Positions 1,380-62,386 of a stretch of DNA of 64,000 nt are shown here, piece after piece. Under the pieces are notes generated by a model. That model did not search any database. It saw only the letters and a program-made list of their open reading frames with translations, and had not been told where the DNA came from. The position numbers and the translations under genes were made by a program. The first letter of the stretch is position 1. The number at the start of each line of letters is the position of its first letter. This DNA comes from Cyanidioschyzon merolae (taxonomy: Eukaryota), in NCBI GenBank assembly GCA_000091205.1, contig AP006496.2; one strand, 5' to 3'.

Positions 1380-3300
1380 TAACGCACATCGCAAAAGTGG
1401 TATTTCCGGAATAGTTTTTCAAAGAGAATTCTATCAACCACCTGATTTCTCCGAATAGGGAAGCATCAATGAGAAGAGAGCGGGCGGATGCCTACCTCAA
1501 AATTTACGAGAAATTCCGCGACAACGGTGCTGGACACAGGGGTGACGCAGATATTTACGAATACAGGGCAATGGGTTGCCTCACGAACGCGAGGAACCAA
1601 AAATTCTTAACCGTCATCTTTTCCATGAATGGCGCCCCCTTTGCCCTCTACGCGGGCCCGTTTCGCGAAGGGATGCGGCGAATCATCGATATTATCAGGA
1701 ACGATCGCCAGCATGAACAGGAGACCATATCCGTCGACAAGGTCATATCATGCTGGTTAACGAATGACGCTTCTCTTATCCGCGCCACTAGTTTAAAGCA
1801 TCGTCCGGTCTTGGGGCTTGTCAACCCATGAGAATTATTTTCAGATATGAGTAAAGACGAAGAGATTTGTTACACCCTCCTCATGTCCTACTCCATGCTT
1901 TTGGACCGAGAACTCGAACGCAAGGCCGAAATGGAGCTGAGTATGGATATAATGAATTGCTGGAGAAATGGCACTGAAGAGCTTCTCCTGTTGCGGTTTA
2001 TTTTTCGTCCGGTTATGCGAGTTCAAGTCACATTTTGTGAATATCGACTCTAGATTTCTTTACGCCGTCAAGAAAGAGATTTATCCAGTGCCCGATAGAA
2101 GCAACAAAGAGGTCACTGGCGAAGCCCGGGACACCTACTGGAAGAATAACTTCGATTGCAAGCGTCCGATACCGGCCAAAAGAAGGTATTCACGGGGGCC
2201 ATCGATGACGACGGGGTATACATATTGGTTCACTTTCAGCGGTTGCAGGCACTTCGTCCTATCCCGTCTCCGTTACCGCCCTTGCCAAAGCACGAAAACA
2301 AGACGAAAGGCCACCGGACGTATCGTCTACACGAGAACGACTTCGTCGTCGGCCTTTACTCCTGGAATACTGACGTGATTACCATCGCTGTACCCAAGCG
2401 TTCGGAAGATTTTACTGAATGTAGCTTACGTCAGAAAGACATGCGTCTTTTTCAGGTTCTCGAGATCGAGGTACTACCGAGAAGCGGGAATCATGAATCC
2501 GGGGAAGATAATTGAGACTTTAAATGCAGGAGTGAAAGAGTATCTGGAGGTTATGGGCGAGTTGACGAGCCGACGAGCGGACTCTCAGGCTTTTCGAGAA
2601 TTCATGGAGGTTCGTTTTGTCCACTGGGATTCGCTGTAGAAGAAGTGTAAAAGGCCCCGGTGGGCTAGTCTACCTATGAGTCCTTACTGTGGTAGGAAGC
2701 GTTCATTCGCGAACTTTTTCAATGCATTGAACGCCTCCAGGAGAATGAGAGTCAGTGGCTCATAGTAGCCTATGGGGCATGGAGCTGGGCTCCAAAAAGC
2801 GGACTACGCCAGCTTCGTCGACGAGGACATACAATGTGTGTGCACGGCGTTTTCTTACAATCCCTGTAGATGGGTTCCGAACATTGTGTACACACCATGC
2901 GCTGGGCTGTATACTTCAGAGAGTGGAGATGGAAAAGTGTCATCGCAGCCCTGGGGAATTAGCAAAGTACGGACCGCTGACGGAACTGCTAATGGAAAGA
3001 AGGGCGAAAGTTCCTGGACTACTTGCAATAGCAAGTATAACGAATGAGGGCAAGAAACGGATGGGGTTTGTAAATCGTGCCTTTGATGCCGCACTCAATT
3101 TCAGAAGAAGTGCGGTGCTGGAGAAAATACCTCCAGAGTCGACATGAGAGAACTTTGTTGGACAACCTCTCAAACTCGAACTATATGAGACAAGATTGGA
3201 AGCAGTGTAGGTGGCCGGTCCAAAAAGACGGGGGGCGTCTGCATAGCAATGGGAGACTTTATGCTAGGGCGGGCTTCTCGCCAATACTGTACACCGCTGG
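1380..3300 (+). mobile_element. Degenerate, 5'-truncated copy of the Fanzor/TnpB-like transposon (copy 0); single acidic repeat unit, RuvC-I motif decayed (GLYSWNTD)
   Basis: ORF 1469..1831 (YEYRAMGCLTNARNQ...ASLIRATSLKHRPVLGLVNP) aligns with the N-terminal protein of other copies (YKYRAMKYLTNLKNY...[20 protein letters not shown]). ORF 2156..2515 has KKVFTGAIDDDGV...LHENDFVVG...ITIAVPKR. ORF 2755..3147 has the RuvC C-terminal block (RFLTIPVDGFRT...KKRMGFVNRAFDAALNFRR). The 3' tail (gtcgacatgagagaactttgttgg...cgccaatactgtacaccgctggcg) matches the tails of other copies. Confidence 0.6.
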
Positions 3301-3830
3301 CGTCGTTCGAGTGTAAAAGGCGGTGGTGGCCTGGACGCTCGGACTCGTCGTCGGTGAGCACCAGACGTTTCCGAACAGTAGCCGAACAGTAGCCGAGCGG
3401 TTCCAAAGCACTGCACCAGTTGCCACAGGAGCGACGCCCAGGCACACGACCGGGTCTCGGGAAACGCTGCAGTTGCTGGTGTACGAGCCGGTGCGTACCC
3501 GCCGAGAACGAGCAGGTCATCTTGCGCTGTGATCCCGGCACTCGAAGTGCATTCAGGTCCAGGCAGCTATTACCTCCTGTGCCTGCACGCGCAGTATCGC
3601 CGTCGGAGCGTACGCACTGTCAAGCACGTCAAACGTTCAAAGAGCTAGCTAGTCGGCGAGTAGTTTACCTTCTTCAATCAAGCGCGGAGCAGCAGCGGCA
3701 GCGTCGAGCGCCTGCCTTTGACAGCGGCCTGTCCGCAGTCGACTGTACACGCCTAACCGCTGCCCCTGGTGACCCCCGAGGCGGGACACTTTGGTGATTC
3801 CCGGGCCGGCCGTACTCCCACGGACCTAAA

Positions 3831-5528
3831 ATGGCGCCTGCTGTCAAGCGAAGAGCCGCGGACGCCACCGCCGCTTCGCTACCCGCCTCGTCGCCGTCAG
3901 CTGAGCGTGTGCAGGCGGCAGACTTGGACGTCATGCATCAGGGCCGCACCAAAGAGGACACACCACAGCATGAGCACCCGGGCGCTGACCCGCAGAAACA
4001 ACAGGCATCACCACTCGAACGACTAGTGCTGCGCTCGACTGCGCACGTACGCGCGAACCCGGACGCCTGGCTCACGGGTGCGCTCGTGCTGCTTGGACTG
4101 TGGACGCGCCTCTACCGGATCCGCTGGCCACCCGAATGCGTCTTCGATGAGGTTCACTTTGCGTCGTTCGCACACCACTACCTCAACCGCACCTACTTCT
4201 TTGATATCCACCCGCCTCTGGCGAAGCTCACGCTGGCCGCAGTCGCGAAACTCGCTGGTGACGTCCCGAATCGCGACTGGTACGTCGACAAGGTCTACCC
4301 ACCAGACAGCCGGTACTATGCGATGCGCGCGTGCGCTGGCGTCTTCGGGGCGCTCCTGCCTCCGCTAGGCTTCCGCATCGCCCGCGGGATGGGTATGTCG
4401 CGGATCGCAGCCACTAGTGTGGGCGTGTTTCTGCTCTTCGACATGCTGAACCTGATCGAGGCGCGCCATATCCTCACGGACTCGCAGCTCATCTTCTACG
4501 CTGCGCTATGCATCGATGCGTTCGTGCGGCTGTGGCGCACGCCTCCAGCGAGCCGCGCTCGACGCTGGGCTGCTGTGCGCGCCGGCCTCGCGAGCGGTGC
4601 AGCGCTCTCAGTGAAGTGGACCACGCTCGTGGTGCCCGGCCTCTTCGGCCTCGAGTCGGTTGCCGGCGCTGCGCTCGCCGCCGAGCCGCTCGAGTGGAGC
4701 ACCTGCGCGATCGTCGCCGCAACAGCCCTGCTCTTGTACGTGGCGCTCTGGTACCCGCACTTTCGGATTCTGATCTATAATGGACCAGGCGGTGACTTTA
4801 TGAGCGCCGAGTTCCAGCGGACCCTCATTGGTCGCGACGGCTACGACCCGCAGGCCCGAAAGCCGCCTTTCCTCAAGCTCGTCTGGCAGCTCAACAAGGA
4901 GATGCTGCTGGCGAACGCGCGCATCCTCGATGAGCACCAGTGGCAAGCGCGCTGGCACACATGGCCATACGTAGGCCGTGGCCTCCTTTACTGGAATCGC
5001 TGGCAGGAGGGTACGTTGGATGCTGACGGGCGACCGCTGCGCCCGCATCACGCCATGCAGATCTATCTGATCGGGAATCCGCTGCTGTTCTGGATGTGCT
5101 TGGCAGCGGTGCTTGGTACAGTGGCGGCAATGCCGTTCTTGCTGCGCCTGATTCGCCAGCGGAAAAAGCGTGGAACGAGCACGGACGCATGGGAGCGCTA
5201 CCTGCGGCTGGCAACATTCCTTCTGCTTGGCTATGCGCTCGGCATTCTCCCGTACATGCCGATCCAGCGAAGTACGTTTATCTACCACTACCTGCCGTCG
5301 CTGTTGTTCGCGGAGCTGCTTTTTGCGCACGCGGTCCTCGATCTGCCGGCGCTACCGTCGGTGCTGCAGCTGCCGCTCGCCGGTATCGTCTGGATCGTTG
5401 TCTTCTGGTGCTTCTGGTACTTCCGCGCCTGGGTCTATGGACACATCGCGCTCACCGCCGACGACCATGAGGCCATGCGCTGGATCAAGTACACGTCCAG
5501 CGTAGGCGACAACAAGGGATGGCACTGA
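3831..5528 (+). CDS. Dolichyl-phosphate-mannose--protein O-mannosyltransferase (PMT, GT39 family), lacking the MIR loop
   Basis: 565-aa ORF with the PMT signature ECVFDEVHFASFAHHYLNRTYFFDIHPPLAKL (the DE motif of loop 1) and multiple TM segments. The loop-5-flanking motifs DFMSAEFQRTL and WHTWPYVGRGLLYW are directly adjacent with about 60 aa between them, so the roughly 190-aa MIR domain is missing. Codon usage is GC3-rich. Confidence 0.85.
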   Translation: MAPAVKRRAADATAASLPASSPSAERVQAADLDVMHQGRTKEDTPQHEHPGADPQKQQASPLERLVLRSTAHVRANPDAWLTGALVLLGLWTRLYRIRWPPECVFDEVHFASFAHHYLNRTYFFDIHPPLAKLTLAAVAKLAGDVPNRDWYVDKVYPPDSRYYAMRACAGVFGALLPPLGFRIARGMGMSRIAATSVGVFLLFDMLNLIEARHILTDSQLIFYAALCIDAFVRLWRTPPASRARRWAAVRAGLASGAALSVKWTTLVVPGLFGLESVAGAALAAEPLEWSTCAIVAATALLLYVALWYPHFRILIYNGPGGDFMSAEFQRTLIGRDGYDPQARKPPFLKLVWQLNKEMLLANARILDEHQWQARWHTWPYVGRGLLYWNRWQEGTLDADGRPLRPHHAMQIYLIGNPLLFWMCLAAVLGTVAAMPFLLRLIRQRKKRGTSTDAWERYLRLATFLLLGYALGILPYMPIQRSTFIYHYLPSLLFAELLFAHAVLDLPALPSVLQLPLAGIVWIVVFWCFWYFRAWVYGHIALTADDHEAMRWIKYTSSVGDNKGWH

Positions 5529-15631: not shown

Positions 15632-16762
15632 ATGTCCTCGCAGAGCACGGCGCTTTCGAACGGTGCCAAGTCGGTAACCGGTGGACAGCCCGACGGGAAC
15701 TCGGACGCGCTGGTCGTCTACGGCGACCGTCTGCGCTTCGTGCCGCGGAATATCCTTGTGACTGGCGGTGCCGGCTTTATTGCCTCGCACGTTGTCGAAC
15801 GGCTCGTGAGTCGATATCCCCATTACCGCGTGACGGTACTGGACAAGCTCGACTACTGCTCGTCGCTGAGCAACCTCGCGCAGGTGGCAAACCGACCAAA
15901 CTTCAAGTTTATTCGCGGCGATATCCGCTCGCATGACCTGGTGCTCTACGTGCTCCAGGAGGAGTGCATCGATACAGTGCTCCACTTTGCGGCGTGCACG
16001 CACGTCGACAACTCGTTCACGTCCTCGATCCTGTTTACGGAGAACAACGTGCTGGGAACGCACGTCCTCCTGGAGTGCGCACGCCAGTACGGCAAAGTGC
16101 GGCGCTTCATTCACGTCAGCACCGATGAGGTGTACGGCGGCGAGAGCAACATGGAGACAGAGTCATCGATCCTGGCACCCACGAACCCGTACGCATGTAG
16201 CAAGGCCGCCGCCGAATTCATTTGCCGCGGCTACGTCAAGTCGTTCGGATTGCCGGTGATCATCACACGCGGCAACAACGTGTACGGGCCGCACCAGTTC
16301 CCCGACAAGCTCATTCCCAAGAGTATCTGTCTGCTGGCGCAACGCCGGCCCTGCTTTGTACACGGCTCTGGTGAGCATGCACGCAACTTTTTGTACGTCG
16401 AGGACGCGGCGAGCGCCTTTGACACCATCCTGCATTGTGGCGAGACCGATGAGGTCTACAATGTAGGCTCTGAGATCGAGAAACGCAACATTGACGTTGT
16501 GCACGACATTATCGATCTCTTCGGCCTGTCTGCCGAGGCGAACCGCCACATCGAGTTTGTCAAAGATCGCACCCTCAACGATATGCGCTACAGGATCGAC
16601 TCGTCGAAGCTGCATGCGCTTGGCTGGAGGCCGCAGGTGTCCTGGGAAGAGGGCCTGCGCCGAACCAAGACCTGGTACTGTGATCCGAATAACCTGAAGC
16701 GCTGGCCGAATTATCTCAGTGGCCTCGTACCGCATCCGAGTCTCACCGAGGAGAAGCACTAG
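15632..16762 (+). CDS. UDP-glucose 4,6-dehydratase (RHM N-terminal-domain type; first step of UDP-L-rhamnose synthesis)
   Basis: ILVTGGAGFIASHVVERL (GxxGxxG), YRVTVLDKLDYCSSLSNL, HFAACTHVDNSF, STDEVYG and YACSKAAAEFICRGY (YxxxK) are the dTDP/UDP-glucose 4,6-dehydratase hallmarks. Same strand as NRS/ER, 1.2 kb downstream. Confidence 0.9.
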   Translation: MSSQSTALSNGAKSVTGGQPDGNSDALVVYGDRLRFVPRNILVTGGAGFIASHVVERLVSRYPHYRVTVLDKLDYCSSLSNLAQVANRPNFKFIRGDIRSHDLVLYVLQEECIDTVLHFAACTHVDNSFTSSILFTENNVLGTHVLLECARQYGKVRRFIHVSTDEVYGGESNMETESSILAPTNPYACSKAAAEFICRGYVKSFGLPVIITRGNNVYGPHQFPDKLIPKSICLLAQRRPCFVHGSGEHARNFLYVEDAASAFDTILHCGETDEVYNVGSEIEKRNIDVVHDIIDLFGLSAEANRHIEFVKDRTLNDMRYRIDSSKLHALGWRPQVSWEEGLRRTKTWYCDPNNLKRWPNYLSGLVPHPSLTEEKH

Positions 16763-24592: not shown

Positions 24593-25375
24593 GTGCCGAG
24601 TCCAGAAGAAAAGGAAGAGAGAAAGAAGAAGGACAGAAAGGGGGAGGTCCTACTTCGAAGGCGGCAAGAAAGACGGCTGTACGACGAGAAGGTGGTGAAA
24701 ACCTTCCTTCTTGGACATATCAAGGATTCCTACAGGGAAAAGTTGCGAGACGCTATCGAAAAACGTGTCGACTCGCACACCAAGAGTATTGTGAAGGCGT
24801 CGTCAGGACTGATGCATTTAGCGAGGGAGATGTATCGCGACGTGACGCAAATGGAAACGGTCGAGATTCCGGACGATTTTTTCGACAAGACCTTTCTTCG
24901 TCAGCTGATGCTTGGGACAGGTGAATCGCGGAGGGAAACTCAGCTAGGGCATGCCCTCCACGAAAACTTCGCGGAATTCCACTTCGAGGGTAATCGATAC
25001 AGGGGTGACTGGCGTATTTACAAATATAGGGCAATGAAGTACCTCACGAACCTGAAGAACTATTTGACAACGAACCTCGAACGTTTCGTGATACGCGCCG
25101 TGGTTGCACTCTACCCGGGCCTGTCTCGCAAAAGAATATGGGCCATCATCGATGGTATCACGAAAGATCGCAAGCATGAAGATGAGGTCGAATTTGTCGA
25201 CAAGAAGGCGTCAAAAGTGAGAACGAATGAAGCTTCTCTGATCCGTGCGGCTATTCAAGAGCACCGTGCAGTCTTAGGGCTGGTGACTCCAACAGACAAG
25301 ATATCAGAGTTGAAAAAAGATAAGGAAAGATACTATCGCCTCGTCCTGCGGTACCTCGTGTTTCTGGACCGATAG
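24593..25375 (+). pseudogene. Copy A, N-terminal segment of the Fanzor-like protein (lysine-rich NLS-like start, then a helical region); ends at a TAG where the copy at 47323..47763 has GAG
   Basis: Aligns along its length with 59161..60318(-) (the MKKQVDDPGGPGS...ERFMIRAVFALYPGLSRK region). Here LDR*LERKAEM versus [11 protein letters not shown] in copy 5. Confidence 0.65.
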
Positions 25376-26090
25376 CTCGAACGCAAGGCGGAGATGAAGC
25401 TGAGAGGCGAAAAAATGAAGAGTGGGAGAGACGGAAGGCTGTCCTAATGGGTAAGCGCTTCAACGGCGTTCCAGTGTGCAACCTCAAGTCACATTTTGTG
25501 AGTATCGACTCCAGAGTCCTTGACGCCGCATGAAAGAGATCAGTCCCGAGTTCGATGTTAGCAGGGAGGAGTTCTCCGGCGAAAACCGGGAGACCCACTG
25601 GAAGAATATCTTCGATTTCAAACGTCTGAGAGTGAGCAAGCAAACGGTATTCACTGGTTTGATCGAAACCGATGGAGTAGCCTTGTGTGTACACTATCGG
25701 CGGTTGAAGAAAGATCGGCCAGTTCCGCCCTCGGCTGCGCCCGTGACGAAGGATGGAGAAAAGGAGGAGTCGGATCCTGCGATGCAGGAGGTGGAGGATA
25801 ACGACTTTGTCGTTGACGTGGCGAAGGATGAAGATGAGAAGGAGGCGGATCCCACGACGCAGGAGGTGCAAGATAATGACCTTGTCGTCGACGCTGCGAG
25901 GCATGAAGATGAGAAGAAGGCGGATCCTGTGATGCAGGAGGTAGAGGATGACAACCTTGTCGTTGACGCGGCGGAGCATGAAGAAAACAAGAAGGCGGGT
26001 TCTGAGAAGCAGAAAGTGCAGGAAAACGACTTTGTCGTTGATGTGACGAAGCATGAAGTTGAGAAGGAGGCGGAACCTGCGACGTAGGAG

Positions 26091-26981
26091 GTGGAGGGTA
26101 ACGACTTTATCGTTGACGCGGCGAAGAATGAAGAAAAGAAGGCGGCGGGTCCTGTGACGCAGAAAGTGCATGAGAATGACTTTGTCGTTGGCGCAGACCC
26201 TGGAAACACAAATATCATAACCATCGCTGCACCGAAGCGTGCGGAACTTGGTATTGACGGCAACTTGCGTCAGAAAGACATGCGTCTTTTGGGGTTCTCG
26301 AGAGCGAGATACTATCGAGAATCGGGAATGATGAATGCGAGGAAGAAAATTGAGACTTGGAATTCAGGAATGAAGGATCACCTGGAAGCCTTGAGCGAGG
26401 TCATGAGCCGGGGAGCGGACTTTCGGGCTTTTCGGGAATTCATGGAAGTTCGTGTTACCCATTGGGATGCGCTGTGGGAGGAGTATACCAAGCTCCGGTG
26501 GGCTCGTTTGCGTAAGAATCTATACGGTGGGAAACAGCGGGCGTTTGCCAACTTTTTCAGTCAGTTGAGTGCCTTGAAGGAGGATGAGAGTCAGAGGCTG
26601 GTAGTGGCATACGGAGCAGGGCGCTGGGCGCCCAAGAAAGGCACTGCGCCAGCTCCAACGACAAGATCATACAAGGAGTGCGCATGGCGTTTCGTCACGA
26701 TACCTGTAGATGAGTTTCGAACGTCCTATACACACCATGAACTGGGGTGTACACTGCAGAGAGTGGAGATTGAAAAGTGTCAGCGGAGTCCTGAGGAAAT
26801 AGCAAAGTACGGACCGCTGACGGAAGAGCAAATGGGAAGGAAGGCGAAAGTGCGAGGGCTACATGCACTAGGGAGTACAACTCACAACGGCAAGAAACGG
26901 ATGGAATTCTTGAACCGAGACTTTAACGTCGCTATGAATATACGGAGATGTGCGGTGCTGGAGACGAGACCTCCAGCGTAG
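26091..26981 (+). pseudogene. Copy A, RuvC nuclease segment of the Fanzor/TnpB-like protein
   Basis: [15 protein letters not shown] (RuvC-I Asp), RAFANFFSQLSALKEDESQRLVVAYGAGRW (RuvC-II region), FRTSYTHHELGCTLQRVEIEKCQRS (ZnF-like), KKRMEFLNRDFNVAMNIRRC (RuvC-III, RD.N.A.NI). It is preceded by a TAG that aligns with CAG (Gln) in the repeat consensus. Confidence 0.7.
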
Positions 26982-27166
26982 ACATGAGAGAACTTTGCTG
27001 GACAGCCTCTGAAAGTTGAACTATATGAGAACAAGTTGTAAGCAGTAGTGGGTGGCCGGTCCAAAAAGTCTGGGAGGCGTCTACACGTCAGTTAAAGATT
27101 TTTTGTCGAGGGCGCGGTTGCCGCCACTACTTTTTCTGCCGACCGCAGCGCAATTAAAACTACTCT

Positions 27167-29259: not shown

Positions 29260-29830
29260 TGTAACTAAAGTAGCACACGAGCGTGCGGCAGACATTTTTC
29301 GGACGACAAAACGTTTAGATTGACCATGCATCCCAGAATTCGGGACGGATAATGGCTTTCGGGAAAGCGTCCATCGTGAAGCACCTACCTTCAGGTTCCA
29401 TTACCCATACTTCCTCTCGGATATACTTGTCGTTTCGTATGTTCTATCGTGCGCCAAGTGCCTGCAGTGAGCACCCGCCATAGCGCTTATATACCGCTGA
29501 AGCAGATGCTGCACGGAGACAGAACGGCTTTGCCATACCACTGAGGGCGTCGATTCGATGCTTGGTTCATCCGACACGGGATCGGAGTACTTAATCATTA
29601 TGAAAGCCTGCGAAAGCGCGAACCGATCTACGAGGAGTTCACTGCGACCAGGGTGACGCCCAGACGCAGCATACGCGCTCCTTGTCCCAGAATGAATTGC
29701 GTTGCAGACGAGCTGCGCAGGTCTCGCCATACTACCTGCCACTGGAGAAAGCATGAAGCACTAGCCGCGCAGACTCGTCCGGCTCACTGGATCTTCCGCC
29801 TAGAAGGTAAACTTTCGAAGATACGGAAAA
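29260..29830 (-). repeat. Solo copy of the transposon 5' module (variant X'), in inverse orientation to the adjacent truncated copy 3
   Basis: The minus strand reads taccttctaggcggaagatccagtgagccgg...atcgacgccctcagtggtatggcaaagccgttctgtctccgtgcagc...gatggacgctttcccgaaagcc. This matches the 5' module of copy 6 (61135 downward) and the module at 47964-48400. Confidence 0.5.
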
Positions 29831-29984
29831 TTTTCCCCATTTCAGTGCTTACTATCAAGGTAGAAAGAAACTGTTATCGAGTTGCCTGTCAGAGGTTAGT
29901 TTCTGTTCTTTTCTCTCTGGGAGAATGCTCGCTGCTCACGGGCGGACACAATTAGAGGGCAAGCCTGTGTGAGGAAGTTGGTAA

Positions 29985-30876
29985 CGAGGGCAACTTATGT
30001 CAGAAAGACATGCGTGTTTTGAAGTTCTCGAGAGCGAGATATTACCGAGAATCGGAAATAATGAATGCGAGGAAACAAAGTGAGGTGTGCAACGCAGGAA
30101 TGAGGGAGCATCTGAAAGCGATCCACCAAGTGACAAGCCGTGGGGCGGACTTTAAAGCTTTCCGGGAGTTCATGCAAGTTCGCGTGGCTCATGACGAGAC
30201 GCTGTGAAAAGAGTATACCAAGCCCCGGTGGGCTGGTCTGCGTATGAGCTTGTATTGTGGGAAGCGGCGTGCATTCGCGAATTTTTTCAATGAGTTGAGC
30301 GCCCTAAAGGAGGATGAAAGTCAGAGGCTTGTAGTAGCGCACGGAGCAGGGCGCTGGAAGACTCAAAAAGGGACTACGCCAGCTCCAACGACACGAACGT
30401 TCAAGGAGTGCGCACGGCGTTTTGTTACGATACCGATAGATGAGTTTCGAACATCGTATACAAACCATGAACTGGGGTGCACACTTCAAAGGGTCGAGAT
30501 GGAAAAGCGTCGGAGGAGCCCTGATGATATACGAAAGTACGGAGCGCTGACGGAAGAGCAAATGGAAAGGAGAGCGAAAGTTCGAGGACTAGGTGCACTA
30601 GTAAGTACAACTACCAACGGGAAGAAACGGATGGAGTTCGTGAACCGAGATTTTGACGCAGCAATCTATATAAGGAGATATGCGGTGATGGAAAGAAGAC
30701 CTCCAGAGTTGAGAAGAGAGAACTTTGTGGGGCAACCTCTCAACGTGGAATTATATGAGAAAAAGTTGAAACCAGTAGTAGGTGGCCAGTCCAAAAAAAT
30801 GCTGGGAGACGTCTGAACGTCAGTTGGAGACTTTTTGTCTAGGGCGCGTTTGCCACTACTGGACACTGCCGGCGAC
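29985..30876 (+). mobile_element. 5'-truncated Fanzor/TnpB-like transposon fragment (copy 3): RuvC C-terminal half plus conserved 3' tail
   Basis: ORF 30010..30207 ([25 protein letters not shown]) and ORF 30244..30816 (KRRAFANFFNELSALKEDESQRLVVAHGAGRW...FRTSYTNHELGCTLQRVEMEKRRRS...KKRMEFVNRDFDAAIYIRRY). Tail ...gtctgaacgtcagttggagactttttgtctagggcgcgtttgccactactggacactgccggcg. Confidence 0.7.
30244..30816 (+). pseudogene. Copy 3, RuvC-II/ZnF/RuvC-III segment of the Fanzor/TnpB-like protein
   Basis: See copy 3. RuvC-III NRDFDAAIYIRR. Confidence 0.65.
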
Positions 30877-31243
30877 AACGTTTTTCTTTTGAAAGGCGTT
30901 TGTTGTCCCAGCCGTCGCTCCGAGTGACCTCCAGCAGCACCAGCTCGGAAACCTCGCTCTATTTTCGACGCTACTCTATCAAAATATTCTTATCACAAAA
31001 TCGATCGTCTCCGAGGAAGTTGGGAAACGCAAAACGCTTCGCTAGAGTCGGGCTATCGTGGGGCGATAGTACCAGATGCGGCTTTTCCTACTGATTCTGA
31101 ATCGGGCGCTTCAAGGTGCTTCGGCACTGCTTCCGTTGCGTCATTGGGGACACGACACCAAACGCCCGGGTCAGTTCTTGCTCTTCGCGCTTCACTCGTG
31201 CGCTGTTCAGTCCACAGATGACGCACCATCAACGACCTCTTCA

Positions 31244-34642: not shown

Positions 34643-37330
34643 GAACGCCGGCAGTGTAGAGGATTGGCGAGTGACCTGCCCCAGACGAAACGTCTCCAAC
34701 TGACGTGCCGACGCCTCCGCGTCGATTTGGACCGGCCACCCACTACTGCTTTCAACTTCTTCTCATATAGTTCCACTTTGAGCGGTTATCCAACAAAGCC
34801 CTCTCGTGTCAACTCCGGGCGTCTTCGTTCCACCAGCGCATATCGCCTTAGATAGATAGCGGCGTCAAAGTCTCGGTTCACGAATTCCATCCGTTTCTTG
34901 CCATTGATTGCATACGCCAGTGCAAGCAATCCACGAACTTTTGCCCTCCTTTCCATTTGCTCCTCCGTCAGCGCTCGGTACTTTTTTATATTCTCAGGGC
35001 TCCGCTGACACTTTTCCATCTCCACTCTCTGAAGTGCACACCCCGGTTCGTGGTGTGTATACATTGTTCGGAACTCGTCTACAGGCATCGTAACAATACG
35101 CCGTGCGCACTCCTTGCACGCTCTCGTTGTTGGAGCTGGCGTAGTTCCTTTTTTGGACGCCCAGCGCCCTGCCGCATACGCTCCTACGAGCCTCTGACTC
35201 GCGTCCTATTTGAGGGCGCTCAACTCATTGAAAACGTTCGCGAATGCCCGCTGCCTCCCACAGTATAGATTCATTCGCAAACAATCACACCGGGGCTTGG
35301 TATACTCCTCCCACAGCGCATCCCAATGGGCAACATGAACTTCCATGAATTTCCGAAAAGCTCGAAAGTCCGCTCCCCGGCTCATGACCTCGCTCAAGGC
35401 TTCCAGGTGATCCTTCATTCCTGAATTCCAAGTCTCGATTTTCTTCCTTTTATCATTGTACCGGATTCGCGGTAGTATCTCGCTCGCGAGAATCTCAAGA
35501 GACGCATGTCTTTCTTACGTAAGTTACCGTCAGTACCGTCTTCCGCACGTCTGGGTGCAGCAATGGTGATGATATTCGTATTGCCAGGGTCCGCGCCAAC
35601 GACAAAGTCGTTATCCTGCACTTTCTGCGTGGCAGGATCCGCCTCCTTCTTTTCTTTCTCCTTCGTCATGTCAACGACAAGGTCGTTATCCTCCACCTCC
35701 TGCGTCGCAAGACCCGCCTCCTTCTTTTCTTCATGCTTCGTCGTGCCAACGACAAGGTCGTCATCCTGCATTTTCTGTGTCAAAGGATCCGCCTCCTTCT
35801 CATCTTCATCCTTCGCCACGTCAACGACAAAGTCGTTATCCTCCACCTCCTGCATCGCAGGATCCGACTCCTCCTTTTCTCCATCCTTCGTCACGGGCGC
35901 AGCCGAGGGCGGAACTGGCCGATCTTTCTTCAACCGCCGATAGTGTACACACAAGGCTACTCCATCGGTTTCGATCAACCCAGTGAATACCGTTTGCTTG
36001 CTCACTCTCAGACGTTTGAAATCGAAGATATTCTTCCAGTGGGTCTCCCGGTTTTCGCCGGAGAACTCCTCCCTGCTAACATCGAACTCGGGACTGATCT
36101 CTTTCATGCGGCGTCAAGGACTCTGGAGTCGATACTCACAAAATGTGACTTGAGGTTGCACACTGGAACGCCGTTGAAGCGCTTCCCCATTAGGACAGCC
36201 TTCCGTCTCTCCCACTCTTCATTTTTTCGCCTCTCAGCTTCATCTCCGCCTTGCGTTCGAGTTCTAGATCCAAAAACAAGAAATAGCGCAGAATGTGGCG
36301 ATACCATCTTTCCTTATCTTTTTTCAACTCTGATATCTTTTCTATTGGGTTCGCCAACCCCAGAACCGCACGGCGCTCTTGAATAGCCGCGCGGATTATA
36401 GAATCTTCATTCGTGCTCTCTTTTGACACCTTCTTGTCAACGAATTCGACCTCATTTTCACGCTTGCAATCGTTCGTGATGCCACTGATAATCACCCATT
36501 TTCCTTTGCGAGACAGGCCCGTGTAGAGCGCAAACACGGCGCGTATCATAAAACGTTCCAGGGTCATTGTAGAATGGTTCTTCAGATTCTTGAGGTATTT
36601 CATCGCTCCGTGTGTGTAAATATCCCGGTCACCCTTGTATCGAGTACCGTTGAAGCTCTAGAAGGGGTATGTTTTTGTGGAGGGCATGCACTAGCTCATT
36701 TTCCCGCCGCGCTTCCCCTGTACAAAGCGTCAGGCGTCGAATAAAGGTCATGTGGAAAAACCAGTCCGGAACCTCGCCTATTTTGATGTCCGTAACGTCA
36801 TCGTACATCTCCCTCGCCGCATGCATCAGTTCTAAAAAAGCCTTACGAACAGTCCTGGATTACAATTCGACACTGTTTCTGATGGCCTCTTGCAACTTTT
36901 GCCTGCACGGATCCTTGATGTGGCGTAGAAAACAGGCTTTCATCATCCTCTCATCTTACTGGTGTCTCACTTCTAGCTCCTTCTCGCCATGCCATGCCGT
37001 ACTCGTGCATGGAACAAGGCCCCCAGCGATTGTAGACGCTCCGAAAGCAGCATCGCGTGTTTCTAAGCATGTCAAGTTATGGCCTGGATCGCGTTTCCCA
37101 GCAACGGCGAGATGCGCGTTTTGTCCGGTTGTTGCCAGATCTCCAGGCGCCAAGAACAAGACACTTCGACGGACAGCGCATCGCAACGACGATTCCGCGC
37201 TCGATGCATCAACGGCGACGAGAACAGCAGCTGCGGCGGCGGCGGAGGCGGCGCGACGGCGACACAGCGCGATCGGCTCAGATGGTTAATACGAGCTGCA
37301 GGATCAATTCTGACAAGTTGAAGGGAACAC
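34643..37330 (-). mobile_element. Fanzor/TnpB-like transposon copy 4 (internal deletion of the N-terminal NLS region, 1-nt frameshift; 3' half near-identical to copy 5)
   Basis: Minus-strand ORFs 36629..36826, 36190..36603 (N-terminal segment), 35415..36107 (acidic repeats plus Ruv[19 protein letters not shown]), 35206..35418, 34786..35088 (ZnF/RuvC-III: FRTMYTHHEPGCALQRVEMEKCQRS...KKRMEFVNRDFDAAIYLRRY). Tail ends at about 34643 (revcomp ...cgccaatcctctacactgccggcgttcaa). Confidence 0.7.
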
Positions 37331-45668: not shown

Positions 45669-45932
45669 TTTATCCGCGGTGCACTGCGTTCGGAACACAC
45701 ACGAGCTAGAGAAACGTGATCCGCCAAGCGTGCAAAGTTAATCGACGCCACGAGCCTGCGCAGCGACGTTGCAAATAAGGCTTTTCGACTAAAAACAAAA
45801 ACAGGAAACGTATTATACAAGATATAGAAAAACAGAAGCCGACGGAGGGTGCACCGTCGACGTACCGAGCTCAAGATTCCAGCGCACGATCGCATCTCGC
45901 GAATCTTGTCACCACCGCCTATCTAAAGACGC

Positions 45933-47830
45933 GTCGCCGGCGGTGCGCAGTACTGGTGGCGAACGCGCCTTAGACAAATCGTCTCCAACTGACGTGCCGA
46001 CGCCTCCGCGTCTATTTGGACCGGCCACCCACTACTGCTTTCAACTTCTTCTCATATAGTTCCACTTTGAGCGGTTATCCAACAAAGCCCTCTCGTGTCA
46101 ACTCCGGGCGTCTTCGTTCCACCAGCGCATATCGCCTTAGATAGATAGCGGCGTCAAAGTCTCGGTTCACGAATTCCATCCGTCTCTTGCCATTGATTGT
46201 ATACGCCAGTGCAAGCAATCCACGAACTTTTGCCCTCCTTTCCATTTGCTCCTCCGTCAGCGCTCGGTACTTTTTTATATTCTCAGGGCTCCGCTGACAC
46301 TTTTCCATCTCCACTCTCTGAAGTGCACACCCCGGTTCGTGGTGTGTATACATTGTTCGGAACTCGTCTACAGGCATCGTAACAATACGCCGTGCGCACT
46401 CCTTGCACGCTCTCTTTGTTGGAGATGGCGTCATTCCTTTTTTGGACGCCAAGCGCCCTGCCGCATACGCTCCTACGAGCCTCTGACTCGCGTCCTATTT
46501 GAGGGCGCTCAACTCATTGAAAACGTTCGCGAATGCCCGCTGCCTCCCACAGTATAGATTCATTCGCAAACAATCACACCGGGGCTTGGTATACTCCTCC
46601 CACAGCGCATCCCAATGGGCAACATGAACTTCCATGAATTTCCGAAAAGCTCGAAAGTCCGCTCCCCGGCTCATGACCTCGCTCAAGGCTTCCAGGTGAT
46701 CTTTCATTCCTGAATTCCAAGTCTCGATTTTCTTCCTTTTATCATTATACCGGATTCGCGGTAGTATCTCGCTCTCGAGAATCTCAAGAGACGCATGTCT
46801 TTCTTACGTAAGTTACCGTCAGTACCGTCTTCCGCACGTCTGGGTGCAGCAATGGTGATGATCTTCGTATTGCCAGGGTCCGCGCCAACGACAAAGTCGT
46901 TATCCTGCACTTTCTGCGTGGCAGGATCCGCCTCCTTCTTTTCTTCCTCCTTCGTCATGTCAACGACAAGGTCGTTATCCTCCACCTCCTGCGTCGCAAG
47001 ACCCGCCTCCTTCTCATCTTCCTGCTTCGACGCGCCATCGACAAGGTCGTTATGCTGCACTTTCTGTTCTGTGTGGCAGGATCCTCCTCAATGTTTTCTT
47101 CATCCTTCGTCACGGACGCAGCCGAGGGATGGACTGGCCGATCTTTCTTCAACCGCCGATAGTGTATACACAAGGCTACTCCATCGGTTTCGATCAACCC
47201 AGTGAATACCGTTTGCTTGCTCACTCTCAGACGTTTGGAATCGAAGATATTCTTCCAGTGGGTCTCCAGGTTTTCGCCGGTGAAGTCCTCCCTGCTAACA
47301 TCGAACTCGGGACTGATCTCTTTCATGCGGCGTCAAGGACTCTGGAGTCGATACTCACAAAATGTGACTTGAGGTTGCACATTGGAACGCCGTTGAAGCG
47401 CTTCCCCATTAGGAAATCCTTCCGTCTCTCCCACTCTTCATTTGCCTCTTCACTCAGCTTCATTTCTGCCTTGCGTTCGAGCTCTCGGTCCAGAAACGCG
47501 AGGTACCGCAGGACGAGGCGATAGTATCTTTCCTTATCTTCTTTCAACTCTGATATCTTGTCTGTCGAATCCGCCAACCCCAGAACCGCAGGGCGCTCTT
47601 GAATAGCCGCGCGGATTACAGAATCTTCATTCGTGCTCTCGTTTGACGACCTCTTGTCAAAGAATTCAATCTTATCTTCATGCTTACGATGGTTCGTGAT
47701 GCCGTTGATAATCGCCCATAGCCACTTGCAAGAGATACCCTGGGTACAGTGCAAACACGGCACGTATCATAAAACGCTCCAGGTTCACGATCATATGATT
47801 CTTCAGATTCGTGATGTGCGTACTCGGCCT
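45933..47830 (-). mobile_element. Fanzor/TnpB-like transposon copy 5 (5'-truncated within the N-terminal protein; multiple frameshifts; 3' half about 98-99% identical to copy 4)
   Basis: Minus-strand ORFs 47323..47763, 46955..47326, 46704..47060 ([17 protein letters not shown]), 46495..46707, 46075..46452 (FRTMYTHHEPGCALQRVEMEKCQRS...NRDFDAAIYLRRY). Tail ends at about 45933 (revcomp ...ccaccagtactgcgcaccgccggcgac). Confidence 0.7.
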
Positions 47831-47963: not shown

Positions 47964-48400
47964 ATGATTACGTATTCCGACTCCGTATCAGGTGAAACCT
48001 TCCTCGATACGACGCCCTCAGTGGTATCGCAAAGCCGTTCTGTGTCCGTTCAGCATTGGCATCAGCGCTACAGGCGCTTTCGCTGGAGCTCAAATCAGAC
48101 ACTCGGGGCACAACAGGACGTACAAAACTACCGGTGTATCCAAAATGATGCATTAGTAATGGGCTTTGATGGTAGATGCGTCATGATGGACGCTTTTTCG
48201 ACTACCAATATCCATCTCGCCGGCTGAGATCCCCGGTCAATGTAAACGAATTTCGCCATCGAAAGAGAATCGATCGCAGCGCCCTGCGGATGCCGCCCCC
48301 CTCCCCTGCGAAATAACATCCAGACAAACATTACGTCTTTTCCCTTCAAAGGGAACACTGGTCCAAGATGCCGACCCTATGCTGATCGCAGAGCAAGCGT
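47964..48400 (+). repeat. Transposon 5' module (variant X') adjacent to copy 5 but in the opposite orientation; terminal palindrome ttcccttcaaagggaa
   Basis: The plus strand reads cgatacgacgccctcagtggtatcgcaaagccgttctgtgtccgttcagc...gatggacgctttttcgactacc...cttttcccttcaaagggaacactgg. It is homologous to 29260-29830(-) and to the 5' modules of copies A and 6. It abuts the start of the nucleotide-sugar transporter gene. Confidence 0.5.
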
Positions 48401-57873: not shown

Positions 57874-57963
57874 ACGCGTGCCCGCTTGAGACGACCCGCA
57901 CCATCAACGCCGCTCGAAAGTCGAACGGCGCCAACGGTGTACAGTAGTGGCGGCAACCGCGCC

Positions 57964-58908
57964 CTAGACGAGACGTCTCCAACGGGCGTGCAGACGCCTC
58001 CCAGTTTGTTTGAACCGGAAACCCACTACTGCTTCCAACTTCTTCTCATATTGTCCCACTTTAAGAGGTTGTCCAAGAAAATTCTCTCGTGTCCACTCTG
58101 GAGGTCTTTTCTCCAGGACCGCACATTTCCTTGTATTGATGGCGGCATTCAAATCTCGGTTCACAAACTCCATCCGTTTCTTCCCATTGGTAGTTGTACT
58201 TCCTAGTGCACCTAGTCCTCGCACTTTCACTCTCCTTTCCATTTGCTCTTCCGTCAGCGGTCCGTACTTTTTCATATCCTCAGGGCTCCGTTGGCACGTT
58301 TCCATCTCGACCCTCTGAAGTATACACCCCAGTTCATGGTATGTATAGGACGTTCGGAACTCACCTACAGGTAGTGTAACAAACCGGTGTGCGCACTCCT
58401 TGTACGTTCTTGTCGTTGGAGCTGGTGTACACAATTTTTGGGTCTTCCATCGCCCCGCCCCATACGCTGCTACGAGCCTCTGACTTTCATCCTCCTTCAG
58501 GGCGCTCAACTGATTGAAAAAGTTGGCAAACGCCCGCTGCTTCCCACAATACAAATTCATTCGGAAACGAGCCCACCGGGGCTTGGTATACTCCTCCCAC
58601 GGCGCATCCCAATGGGCAACATGAACTTTCATGAATTTCCGAAAAGCTTCAAAGTCCGCTCCTCGGCTCGCCACCTCGCTCAAAGCTTCTAGGTCATCCT
58701 TCATTCCTGAATTCCGGCTCTCGATTTTCTCCCTCGCATTCATTATACCCGATTCTCGATTGTATCTCGCTATCGAGAACCTCAATAGACGCATGTCTTT
58801 CCGACGTAAACTACCGTCAGTACCATCTTCCGCACACTTCGGTGCTGCGATGGTGATGATATTTGTGTTTCCGGGGTCCGCGCCAACGACAAAGTCGTTA
58901 TCGTGCAC
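57964..58908 (-). pseudogene. Copy 6, RuvC-I/II/ZnF/RuvC-III segment of the Fanzor/TnpB-like nuclease
   Basis: [21 protein letters not shown]; KQRAFANFFNQLSALKEDESQRLVAAYGAGRW; FRTSYTYHELGCILQRVEMETCQRS; KKRMEFVNRDLNAAINTRKCAVLEKRP. Confidence 0.7.
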
Positions 58909-60318: not shown

Positions 60319-62386
60319 AGGTTTCCTTTTTTTTTAGTTTTTTGAAAAAGAACGCTCTTTGAACCCTTATGTAATATACTGCGAACAAACACTTGACTAG
60401 ACTTATTTGAGGGTGAAACACAAATGAACTCAAAAACTGTACTTTGCTACGACTTTAACGCAAATAAAACTTGTACAGTAGAGCAGTGCGCTCCTGATCA
60501 GGATCGCGTTTCCCTTCAATGGCGACATGCGCGTCGTGTCAGGTGACTGCCTGATCTCCCGGGTGCGCTCACCGAGCGCGATTTTTAGAATGGACAAAAC
60601 GTTTCCTTGTGCCAGCGTTCTCCGATTGTGCGCATTTTTCTTTTCTTTCTCTCTTTTTGTGTTTTTTTCAGTGCGCGGTGAGGTATCCATCAACCCCCTA
60701 CCTCCATGTTACATTACCGATACTTCATCGCGGATATTCTGGTCGTTTCATACGTCCTATGATGTGTGCCTAGTACCTGCCGTGCCGTACCCGCCTTTGG
60801 ACCTTAACAGCTGGGGCAGATAGTTCATAGAGACAGAACGGCTTTTCCATACCACAGAGGGCGCCGGCTCGAGGCGTGGTTTACCCGACGTAGAATTGGG
60901 TGTCGCCGTCAGTTTGTGCTCAGACAGTCTGCGGATGCAGGTTTGTCTTCGCTGCACGAAACGCTGGAGACACTTGGCTGTTAGGATATATCGTGGGAGC
61001 CGCCTCTCTCTTTCGTGATCATGCATGGAATGCGTTGTTGTCGGTTGGCAATGTGGCTTCGTGCTTGACACCCACCCACCACTGTGGGTAGGCGCAGAAA
61101 GCACTGGGCCCGTGTGCGCATCCGATTCGCTAGACCTTCCGCCTAGAAGGTAGCATGTGAGTTTCTTCGCCACTAATGAGCGCTGAGGCTCGGTTAGCGG
61201 ACCATAAGTTGCCAGTGCTACACTCAGAGTGAGTGTCCGGTCTTCGACTATCACGATGATGCCCAGCTGCTGGTGTCCTCCAAGGAGCTCGCTGCGCTCC
61301 TGCTTCCAGCGCGGGCACTGTAAGCCTAAATATGTCAGCGTCTCGGGGATCTCGTCTCGACAGCAGGGACAGTGTGATTCCCAGTGCGATTCCAGTGTTC
61401 CTATACGGCTTAGAGACGGTGCTGGTAGCCAGAAGCCACCAACGCGGATTTTGGCGAGCCACTGGGTACCTCGAGCAAGTCCCGGGAATTCCAGCGCCTC
61501 CTACCAGTGCCTGCATGTGTATGCTAGGTTGTAGTTCCGGTATAGAGTCAAGCCGGCGTTAAGGGCGCGACTGGTACCGTGTCTACGTTCCCATATTGTT
61601 GTTTGGACCGTTCGCTTCAGGCGGTGGGAGCCTTCTACATTTCTGGGGAACGATTCGAGCGCATTTTCGCCTAAGAGGCGCTTCAACCAAATATGCGTCC
61701 ATTTCATCCTTCTTGCGACGCACCTACCGGTACCGAGTACGTCTCGAGCCTCGTACGCGCTACCGCGGCATATGCCGACCTGCCTCTCTCTCTTCAGTGC
61801 AGAGCGGAGGACTCGACGCTGGACCTCTTAACGACACCGAAAGGCGCTGCTGTTGCTTCTGGGGAAGCACCCGCGACTATCCGTCCAACGGTCCGTACCA
61901 GAGACGTTTGGCACTAGCCCCTAGCGCACTGACAGCTTCGTGCTGCTTGCCGGGTTCGTTATTCGGGCTGCCGAGCGTTTCGGGACGGTAGTCACAGCGA
62001 GCGCCTCCGCTGAGGCAGTTTCACGCTCTTGGGGAAGGGGCGCGCACTTTGCAGGTCGCCAACGTGTCCAGCGTCAAGCCCAACGACTGAACTGCCGTCG
62101 ACTGAGTCGCACACGTACACATGCTCACTGGGACATCAGCGCCTTTCGCCGCTTTGGACTGAGGCTTTGGCGGCGTTTACTACCCGAGTCGGAGAAAAGT
62201 GCGGCGGGTCCGTGAATACTGGGCGGTTTATTGCAGCACTTGACCAGGGAGAAGGGTTGCAGTGAACAGCAGCACGCTACGACTACTGCGCAAAGCTGTT
62301 CGCGCGCGTCTGGTAGCGCTTCCAAGTTGTGTCGAGCGCAGCATAGGCACGAAGCAACGACCCCAAAACGGACGCCCTGAACCTGC

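Follow-up and report, generated by a model that had tools for sequence, protein, structure and literature searches.

[quoted passage not shown]

Background

In the Fanzor1 systems that have been characterized, the omegaRNA is encoded between the 3′ end of the ORF and the right end of the transposon (PMC10432273, PMC11423790). [quoted passage not shown] The omegaRNAs of SpuFz1 and PpFz1 (the latter 75 nt) consist of stem-loop 1 (SL1) and one further stem-loop (SL2) before the guide, 75–90 nt in total, and that of GtFz1 reaches 150 nt (PMC11423790). The omegaRNA can also overlap the end of the ORF, by 17 aa in GtFz1 and by more in ISDra2 TnpB (PMC10432273). Some Fanzor1 genes are carried by nonautonomous elements of the Helitron2 type (CRe-1, CRe-2, and CRe-3), which have hairpins at both ends, T-rich targets, Fanzor1 as their only cargo, and the fRNA in the 3′ UTR.

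The element that concerns us here is CMe-1A, which was described in the C. merolae genome by Bao and Jurka 2013 (PMC3627910). It is present in about 150 genomic copies, each ~80% identical to a 3169-bp consensus, and some of these copies are intact according to the same authors (PMC3627910). CMe-1A encodes a single 734-aa Fanzor1 protein, CMe-1, whose published sequence ends ...RPPELTRENFVGQPLKVELYEKKLEAVVGGRSKKTGRRLHVSWRRFV, and the published consensus DNA ends ...CACCGCTGGCGGCAGCGTTTTTCTTTTGAAAGGCG (PMC3627910). The 5′ 635 bp correspond to another element, TE-N2_CMe. CMe-1A was published as lacking terminal inverted repeats, and its class and target-site duplications were left undetermined (PMC3627910).

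The stretch of DNA analyzed here (the window) comprises 64,000 nt of C. merolae contig AP006496.2. A sequence-only reading of it had proposed that, in all six copies of a repeat, the nuclease stop codon is followed by a conserved noncoding tail (positions 26982–27140 in the copy that we call A), and that this tail is the scaffold of a guide RNA (omegaRNA or fRNA). A literature search found no description of an omegaRNA for the CMe-1A family, and no Rfam family was matched by the whole window (at the gathering threshold) or by the tail of copy B (at E up to 1). Our best overall explanation, which we consider probable on balance, is that these positions belong to the 3′ end of a dead CMe-1A copy, most of it formerly coding, and that it finishes in a terminus of ~72 nt that would be the ancestral omegaRNA scaffold.

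Six copies of CMe-1A in the window

Two host ORFs of the window are 100% identical to proteins of C. merolae 10D (BAM81156.1 and BAM80644.1). Using BLAST, we found five further copies (B–F) of the 3′ region of copy A in the window (Table 1). They are 77%–83% identical to A, which is far beyond chance and is the same level of identity as for the rest of the element. All six tails also match the published 3169-bp consensus, with 84%–90% identity. The six-copy repeat noticed in the sequence-only reading is thus confirmed, and the interval in question is the 3′ end of a pseudogenized copy of CMe-1A, a nonautonomous Fanzor1 element of ~3 kb. Because the ORFs of all six copies are disrupted, none of those in the window is likely to be active now, and no intact ORF occurs among the insertions examined (the longest has 490 aa). 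Copy A is a fossil and, judged by the ORFs, so are the other five.

Table 1. Features of the six CMe-1A copies (coordinates are positions in the window)
Copy	Feature	Position	Strand	Remarks
A	Inverted TE-N2_CMe module	23695–~24226		Inverted relative to the Fanzor ORF
A	Remains of frameshifted Fanzor1 ORF	24593–26981	+	RuvC motifs GADPG, DEFRTS, NRDFN(V/A)A
A	75-nt acidic tandem repeats	25742–26194	+	Inside the Fanzor1 ORF
A	Nonsense mutation TAG, not the ancestral stop	26979–26981	+	Sense codon in the other five copies
A	Former codons 2–43 of the C-terminal extension (consensus ELTRENFVGQPLKVELYEKKLEAVVGGRSKKTGRRLHVSWRRLV)	26982–27107	+	Three further in-frame stops
A	Mutated stop (GAG, 27108–27110) and SL1	27108–27131	+	GGCG...CGCC core closed by TAG/CTA
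A	Linker, then terminal hairpin (half of 5′ arm)	27132–27151	+	Loop and 3′ arm missing; fold z +0.63
A	3′ end of copy	~27151	+	Sequence unrelated to other copies from 27152
B	Inverted TE-N2_CMe module	60697–61151		Inverted relative to the Fanzor ORF
B	BLAST match of 3′ region	58386–57943	−	3′ end ~57899
B	Intact 43-codon C-terminal extension	57967–58095	−	
B	Best-preserved terminus	57899–57966	−	Stop TAG 57966–57964; SL1 57966–57945; 19-bp terminal hairpin 57939–57899, ending at the right end
C	BLAST match of 3′ region	35106–34678	−	3′ end ~34646
C	SL1 and part of the 5′ arm only	34646–34685	−	Stop lost (TGG); truncated like copy A
D	Left end	~48262–48285		
D	Direct TE-N2_CMe module	48261–47835		
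D	BLAST match of 3′ region	46395–45949	−	3′ end ~45906
D	Decayed terminus	45906–45972	−	Stop is TAA; fold z +0.15
E	Left end	~29285–29310		
E	Direct TE-N2_CMe module	29302–29905		
E	BLAST match of 3′ region	30412–30860	+	3′ end ~30911
E	Stop, SL1, and terminal hairpin	30840–30911	+	Hairpin of subfamily-2 type (CGTTTTTC...GAAAGGCG)
F	BLAST match of 3′ region	2842–3288	+	3′ end ~3333
F	Decayed terminus	3265–3333	+	Fold z +0.5

Over 1.1 kb (34683–35820 vs. 45972–47114), copies C and D share 96.6% identity, compared with ~80% for all other pairs. Despite this likeness, the 3′ ends and flanks of C and D differ, which suggests that a recent duplication or gene conversion has involved two old insertions. 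The acidic tandem repeats of copy A, which B, C, and D have as well, lie just upstream of the RuvC-I motif. The prefix of this motif, NDFVV(D/G), recurs in every 75-nt (25-aa) unit, and the number of units differs among copies and among database homologs. As for the surroundings, the window contains genes for a protein mannosyltransferase and a dTDP-glucose 4,6-dehydratase (3831–5528 and 15632–16762) that have several identical or near-identical paralogs on other C. merolae chromosomes. Together with the six CMe-1A copies in 64 kb and the alternation of GC content between elements (~50%) and genes (~60%), this suggests that the region is duplicated, repeat-rich, and possibly subtelomeric.

Assignment of the CMe-1 protein to Fanzor1

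Searches of Pfam and the PDB with the single protein of copy B, or with a shallow profile, gave no match, and a deeper profile was needed. The family profile used comprises 30 sequences drawn from an exhaustive HMMER search (1441 representative clusters), and it matches the solved Fanzor1 proteins of Parasitella (9cf0, E 3.9e-18), Spizellomyces (SpuFz1, 8gkh, E 5e-13), and Guillardia (GtFz1, 9cer, E 2.4e-4). The D...E...D motifs of RuvC (xDPG, DEF/YxTS, and RDxNAA) are present in the CMe-1 consensus, including NRDFNAAINI, and align to the motifs of the solved Fz1 proteins. This homology identifies CMe-1 as a Fanzor1, a predicted TnpB-like RuvC nuclease. For the zinc ribbon (TNB, Pfam PF07282) there are sub-threshold matches in four of 10 distant relatives (E 0.001–0.09) and none in CMe-1, and only two Cys are visible in the CMe-1 consensus between RuvC-II and RuvC-III. 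An AlphaFold2 model of the protein, based on a 20-sequence alignment, had a pLDDT of 34.5.

One full-length relative with 43% identity (P0123, 699 aa, encoded at 1607–3706 of L081, a brine metagenome contig) is located 160 nt downstream from a Tc1/mariner-type DDE_3 transposase (541–1449) on the same strand. This arrangement indicates that relatives of the CMe-1 Fanzor1 clade probably travel in mariner-like elements.

The ancestral reading frame continues past the stop codon of copy A

Copy A reads ...RPPA followed by TAG, and the sequence-only reading had taken the equivalent of this codon as the nuclease stop in every copy. In a six-way alignment, TAG is found at that site in copy A only. 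Copy B has TGG at the corresponding codon, copy F has TCG, and the remaining three (C, D, and E) have TTG. The frame extends 43 codons further, up to a shared ancestral stop (TAG or TAA), which has become GAG in copy A. In copy B the extension is unbroken up to its stop (...RPPEWTRENFLGQPLKVGQYEKKLEAVVGFRFKQTGRRLHARWRRLV), and the other copies contain the same peptide with scattered stops or frameshifts. All 15 database homologs that fully cover the query read through and end at the same stop, and the published 734-aa CMe-1 protein likewise reads through the extension. The C terminus given by a 40-insertion consensus is the published one (...GGRSKKTGRRLHVSWRRFV) except for the penultimate residue, which is L here and F in PMC3627910.

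The insertions used for this consensus derive from 79 related loci of Yellowstone hot-spring metagenomes (Ga0078972 is a Yellowstone metagenome; PMC8986864), which were placed into 42 groups by flanking sequence and, once two near-duplicates had been dropped, gave 40 independent insertions. Of these, 36 read past the position of the copy A stop. TAG occurs there in four of the 40, which are of different subfamilies, as expected if G-to-A mutations have struck TGG repeatedly. Eighteen insertions retain the shared stop together with the whole set of 43 codons. The second base of the codon that opens the extension is hypervariable (TGG, TTG, TCG, TAG), with an identity of 0.40 among the 40 insertions, and this codon sits exactly at the end point of the solved Fanzor1 proteins.

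Given that the ancestral ORF runs 43 codons past the TAG of copy A, these alignments show 26982–27107 to be former coding sequence, by all appearances conserved only by descent. The ancestral ORF accounts, with its last 42 codons, for about 127 of the 159 nt (about 80%) of the interval highlighted by the sequence-only reading. The noncoding part, which had been put at roughly 200 nt, is a terminus of only ~72 nt.

Both of the solved Fanzor1 proteins that align well end a few residues past an RPxxFSR motif, to which RPPELTRE of CMe-1 aligns, and the profile matches of distant relatives end at about position 415 of 454. On both counts the 43-aa extension is lineage-specific. Its start, E(N/T)F(V/I)GQPL, is common with the 43%-identical relative P0123 (ETFIGQPL shared).

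Constraint on the former coding stretch

Substitutions shared by at least three independent insertions were taken to represent evolution of the active lineage, and singletons to represent decay after insertion. As the control for codon statistics we used 23 in-frame codons of the ORF (VNRDFNAAINIRRCAVLEKRPPE). There, the ratio of synonymous to nonsynonymous changes was 21:16 for shared vs. 8:36 for singleton substitutions (Fisher p = 0.0004), and identity at codon positions 1, 2, and 3 was 0.90, 0.92, and 0.83. The first 21 codons of the extension gave 19:20 vs. 10:26 (Fisher p = 0.10; identity 0.88, 0.91, and 0.86) and the last 22 codons gave 12:28 vs. 17:45 (Fisher p = 0.82; identity 0.87, 0.87, and 0.84). 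Thus, the last 22 codons of the extension evolve about like third codon positions. Identity of the tail to the consensus (0.85–0.89) is equal to that of the ORF (0.83–0.92), so the tail described as well conserved is no more conserved than the ORF, and its conservation holds nothing beyond identity by descent.

Folding gave a similar picture. RNAalifold applied to the stretch in 33 insertions returned −2.7 kcal/mol, with a covariation term near 0, and comparison of the fold with shuffles across the 40 insertions gave a mean z of −0.32. In copy A, z was +0.21 for 26982–27107 and −0.92 for 26982–27131. The internal complementarities quoted in support of a guide RNA lack compensatory change, and the interval folds no better than shuffles. 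One candidate stem from the sequence-only reading, GGCGTCT/AGAC(G/T)TC, is not supported, as its 5′ arm is almost invariant and its 3′ arm varies freely. A long-range helix of CAGTAGT(...)GGC with GCCACTACTG, which would enclose SL1, was rejected: It shows 0 compensatory changes and pairs no better than shuffles, and variants simply break pairs. Overall, no covariation-supported structure was found for 26982–27140 as originally delimited, and the similarity of the copies there is explained by descent.

The ~72-nt terminus

Alignment of 33–40 independent insertions gives a noncoding terminus of ~72 nt from the shared stop to the right end. It sits between the 3′ end of the ORF and the right end, which it abuts. 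Its consensus reads TAG GGCG(GG) TTT (CT)CGCC A CTA - CTGTA - CACCGCTGGCG(AC)AACGTTTTTC TTTT GAAAGGCGTTTGTTGTC...GGTG. By per-copy folding, SL1 includes the stop codon (TAG-GGCGgg-loop-ctCGCC-a-CTA) and is separated by a conserved ACTGTA linker from a terminal hairpin. This hairpin is imperfect, with 16–25 bp, and its 3′ arm ends where homology between insertions ends. The motif ccggcg(a/t)c, which had been considered the shared terminus, turns out to be the middle of the 5′ arm of the hairpin, and copies B, D, E, and F, as well as most of 33 other insertions, are alignable for ~35–40 nt more. Copies A and C are truncated in the region of this motif, where they diverge from the others. In copy A, homology with the other copies ends after ...CGCAGCG, and the match to the terminus profile stops at model position 46 of 76. 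The same truncated allele occurs in Yellowstone relatives. A search of the window for ORF-less “ghost” copies of the terminal module gave only the six known tails.

The terminus of copy B folds with −40.7 kcal/mol (z −4.74; 0 of 200 shuffles as good) and that of copy E with −26.6 kcal/mol (z −2.63; 2 of 200 shuffles as good). The terminal hairpin is destroyed in A, C, D, and F. Across the 40 insertions, the mean fold z is −1.6 for the terminus, −0.3 for the region favored by the sequence-only reading, and 0.06 for the flank. Identity to the consensus in SL1 is 0.91 at stem positions and 0.61 in the loop, and, taken together, the SL1 stem and the linker surpass third codon positions only marginally in conservation (0.90 vs. 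0.84, p = 0.087). In the covariation analysis, SL1 was no different from shuffles; its GGCG/CGCC core is invariant and therefore carries no covariation information.

Two subfamilies of the terminal hairpin can be distinguished, CGTTCGA-loop-TCGAACG and CGTTTTTC-TTTT-GAAAGGCG, each of which pairs at 77%–83% in its own register and at 56%–58% in that of the other. The outer stem of subfamily 1 contains 11 cells in which both sides are changed, compared with 4.6 expected (1 of 1000 shuffles). For the hairpin of subfamily 2, no covariation was detected (83.3% paired vs. 84.1% in shuffles). RNAalifold, run on the sequence alignment from −140 to +88, did not recover the terminal hairpin, as indels separate the two subfamilies and each has its own pairing register; the results given here come from per-copy folding, palindrome alignment, and register-specific pair counts. 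In an unbiased palindrome alignment (both transition mismatches scored equally), there were 433 Watson–Crick, 102 G·T, and 17 A·C pairs, counts that come from copies sharing ancestry and are not independent events. Singleton transitions in the neighboring ORF are strand-symmetric (31 vs. 30). With a symmetric mutation spectrum, the excess of G·T over A·C (102:17) shows that the hairpin was shaped for the sense strand as a single strand, whether RNA or top-strand DNA.

The terminus has the same position, size, and two-stem layout as the omegaRNAs of SpuFz1 and PpFz1, and for this reason we rate it the most likely scaffold. By this analogy, it is a plausible but unproven omegaRNA scaffold, and we lean, if only slightly, toward the view that this candidate was the omegaRNA of active ancestors, with SL1 and SL2 (the terminal hairpin) as the scaffold and a guide from the flank. 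In those ancestors, the ~72-nt module would have been transcribed as the 3′ end of the Fanzor mRNA, the transcript would have continued for ~15–20 nt into the flanking DNA, from which the guide would come, and the Fanzor1 RuvC nuclease would have taken up the SL1 + SL2 scaffold, as SpuFz1 and PpFz1 do theirs. Copy A itself presumably could not make a working guide, because its terminus starts at 27108 and is truncated after 27151, and lacks the loop and 3′ arm. What stands of the original guide-RNA proposal is the Fanzor1 protein and the 3′-end principle, which is sound. The placement does not stand, because 26982–27107 is former ORF with no RNA-structure signal, and only 27108–27140 of the proposed interval falls within the terminus.

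The left end and the TE-N2_CMe module

Left ends were located in copies E and D and at loci L030, L071, L051, L016, L042, L056, and others. A T-rich sequence, GATTTTGTTTT, is found directly upstream of the published consensus start CGATGAC in 11 of 13 independent left flanks. In the T-rich 5′ flank, TTTTC is a candidate TAM. At the left end, TTTTGT and ACAAAA could pair as a 5′ hairpin. In addition, the left end (GATGACAAAACG) is similar to both arms at the right end, in direct orientation to the 5′ arm (GGCGACAACG) and in inverted orientation to the 3′ arm (CGTTTGTTGTC).

The 5′ module that corresponds to TE-N2_CMe (~600 nt) is direct in E, D, and other insertions, and is inverted with respect to the Fanzor ORF in A, B, and one metagenomic insertion (L032/L080). 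Because it is found in both orientations, it seems to behave as a separate unit that adjoins the Fanzor part either way around. Positions 23695 (A) and 61151 (B) were considered as the left boundary of the element and rejected, as they correspond to the inner end of the inverted module.

Alternative explanations

Two alternatives concern where a scaffold would begin. If the whole ~160–200 nt after the TAG of copy A were a noncoding omegaRNA or fRNA scaffold in all copies, it would lie between the canonical Fanzor1 C terminus (RPxxFSR, RPPELTRE in CMe-1) and the right end, its length would have a parallel in known Fz1 omegaRNAs (up to 150 nt in GtFz1), and the last 22 codons, in which no amino-acid-level selection is seen (12:28 vs. 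17:45), would be accounted for. However, the frame is open in five of the six window copies, the 43 codons with their stop survive in 18 of 40 insertions, and read-through is the rule in 15 of 15 full-coverage homologs and in the published protein. Structure also speaks against it (RNAalifold −2.7 kcal/mol with covariation near 0, fold z of −0.3 to +0.2, and 0 compensatory changes in the long-range helix), as does a level of conservation that is the ORF's own. We judge this explanation highly improbable and, for 26982–27140, largely refuted. A milder version, in which the omegaRNA scaffold starts inside the 43-codon extension so that the 3′ part of the interval is both ORF and scaffold, has precedent in GtFz1 and ISDra2 TnpB. 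The last 22 codons are in frame yet lack a coding signature, and the extension is absent or different in distant relatives, which fits an ORF that came to read through into a formerly noncoding region. Against this overlap stand the failure to find any stable or covarying structure in −129 to −1 and a nucleotide identity there (0.84–0.87) that approximates third codon positions and is compatible with near-neutral drift; we regard it as unlikely.

Other explanations deal with what the hairpins are for. They could be DNA transposition signals with no guide-RNA role, either single-strand hairpins of the HUH type (as in Helitron2) or inverted sites for a transposase acting in trans. A strand-specific hairpin at a transposon end is how a single-strand DNA transposition signal is expected to look, and the G·T bias would suit either single-strand DNA or RNA. 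A hairpin is possible at the left end too (TTTTGT...ACAAAA), this end is similar to the arms of the right end, the flanks on the left are T-rich, Helitron2 carriers of Fanzor1 with hairpins at both ends and T-rich targets have been described, and the 43%-identical relative adjoins a Tc1/mariner DDE_3 transposase. On the other hand, RepHel aside, no partner transposase was found for CMe-1A, and the left-end-like sequence, being inside the hairpin, is positioned differently from the 3′ asymmetric repeat of Helitron2. Moreover, such signals are compatible with an omegaRNA role, given that the scaffold overlaps the right-end repeat in TnpB and Fanzor. A role in DNA alone strikes us as the less probable case, although one to be taken seriously. 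It might also be argued that nothing is functional here and that the six tails, as parts of a dead repeat family, are alike solely through descent: The ORFs are broken in all six window copies and in all 40 sampled insertions, the divergence of the tail is that of the ORF, and the terminal hairpin is destroyed in A, C, D, and F. Although this is true of present copies, it leaves unexplained an ancestral hairpin kept in two registers, the 102:17 ratio of G·T to A·C under a symmetric mutation spectrum, and the conserved-stem, variable-loop pattern of SL1, and we consider it very unlikely as a full account. Finally, and speculatively, the right end may be dual-purpose, serving an unclassified, hairpin-ended element both as a strand-specific transposition-signal hairpin and as SL2 of a compact omegaRNA whose SL1 would sequester the stop codon, the ORF of this lineage having read through ~130 nt of formerly noncoding sequence next to the scaffold to create a basic 43-aa tail. 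This combination seems improbable to us as a whole; if true, no Fanzor guide RNA would have been defined in a red alga before it, and it would exemplify shifting ORF/omegaRNA boundaries.

Significance

The gain is incremental because the location of Fanzor omegaRNAs at the 3′ end is already established in general. Both that principle and the CMe-1A element are known; what is added, modestly, is a specific candidate for the scaffold and a refinement of the right end. The refined right end bounds the search for an RNA, as the consensus goes past the published one and the hairpin ends at the terminus. The ~72-nt two-stem candidate scaffold is a concrete RNA to seek in RNA-seq and to pair with a reconstructed CMe-1 protein, and C. 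merolae is a genetically tractable red alga with a minimal genome and about 150 copies of one Fanzor1 family. There is also a lesson for annotation: The boundary between coding and noncoding sequence of a repeat family must not be drawn from the stop codon of a single decayed copy.

Comparison with known systems

The published CMe-1A consensus stops at ...TTTTGAAAGGCG, which is within the 3′ arm of the terminal hairpin, and the alignable sequence found here goes ~10–20 nt further. Whereas CMe-1A was published without terminal inverted repeats, we find a hairpin at the right end, a potential one at the left end, and a left end that resembles the right-end arms. In these hairpins, a T-rich 5′ context, and Fanzor1 as the only cargo, CMe-1A resembles the Helitron2 carriers CRe-1, CRe-2, and CRe-3, but the likeness goes no further than resemblance. 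The asymmetric inverted repeat at the 3′ end of Helitron2 is upstream of the hairpin, whereas in CMe-1A the left-end-like sequence is inside it.

Among known omegaRNAs, GtFz1 and ISDra2 TnpB demonstrate that a scaffold can overlap C-terminal codons, and this is the only way in which part of 26982–27107 could be scaffold. Unlike those overlaps, the extension codons of CMe-1A gave no structure or covariation signal. The CMe-1A ORF has a 43-aa extension, whereas the solved SpuFz1 and PpFz1 proteins have none. In CMe-1A, the stop codon forms part of SL1, whose length is not a constant 7 bp, and SL2, at 16–25 bp, is very long, unlike that of SpuFz1 and PpFz1. The omegaRNAs of these two closest solved homologs, to which no sequence similarity is expected, are nevertheless like the CMe-1A terminus in size, in position, and in the arrangement of SL1 followed by a single SL2.
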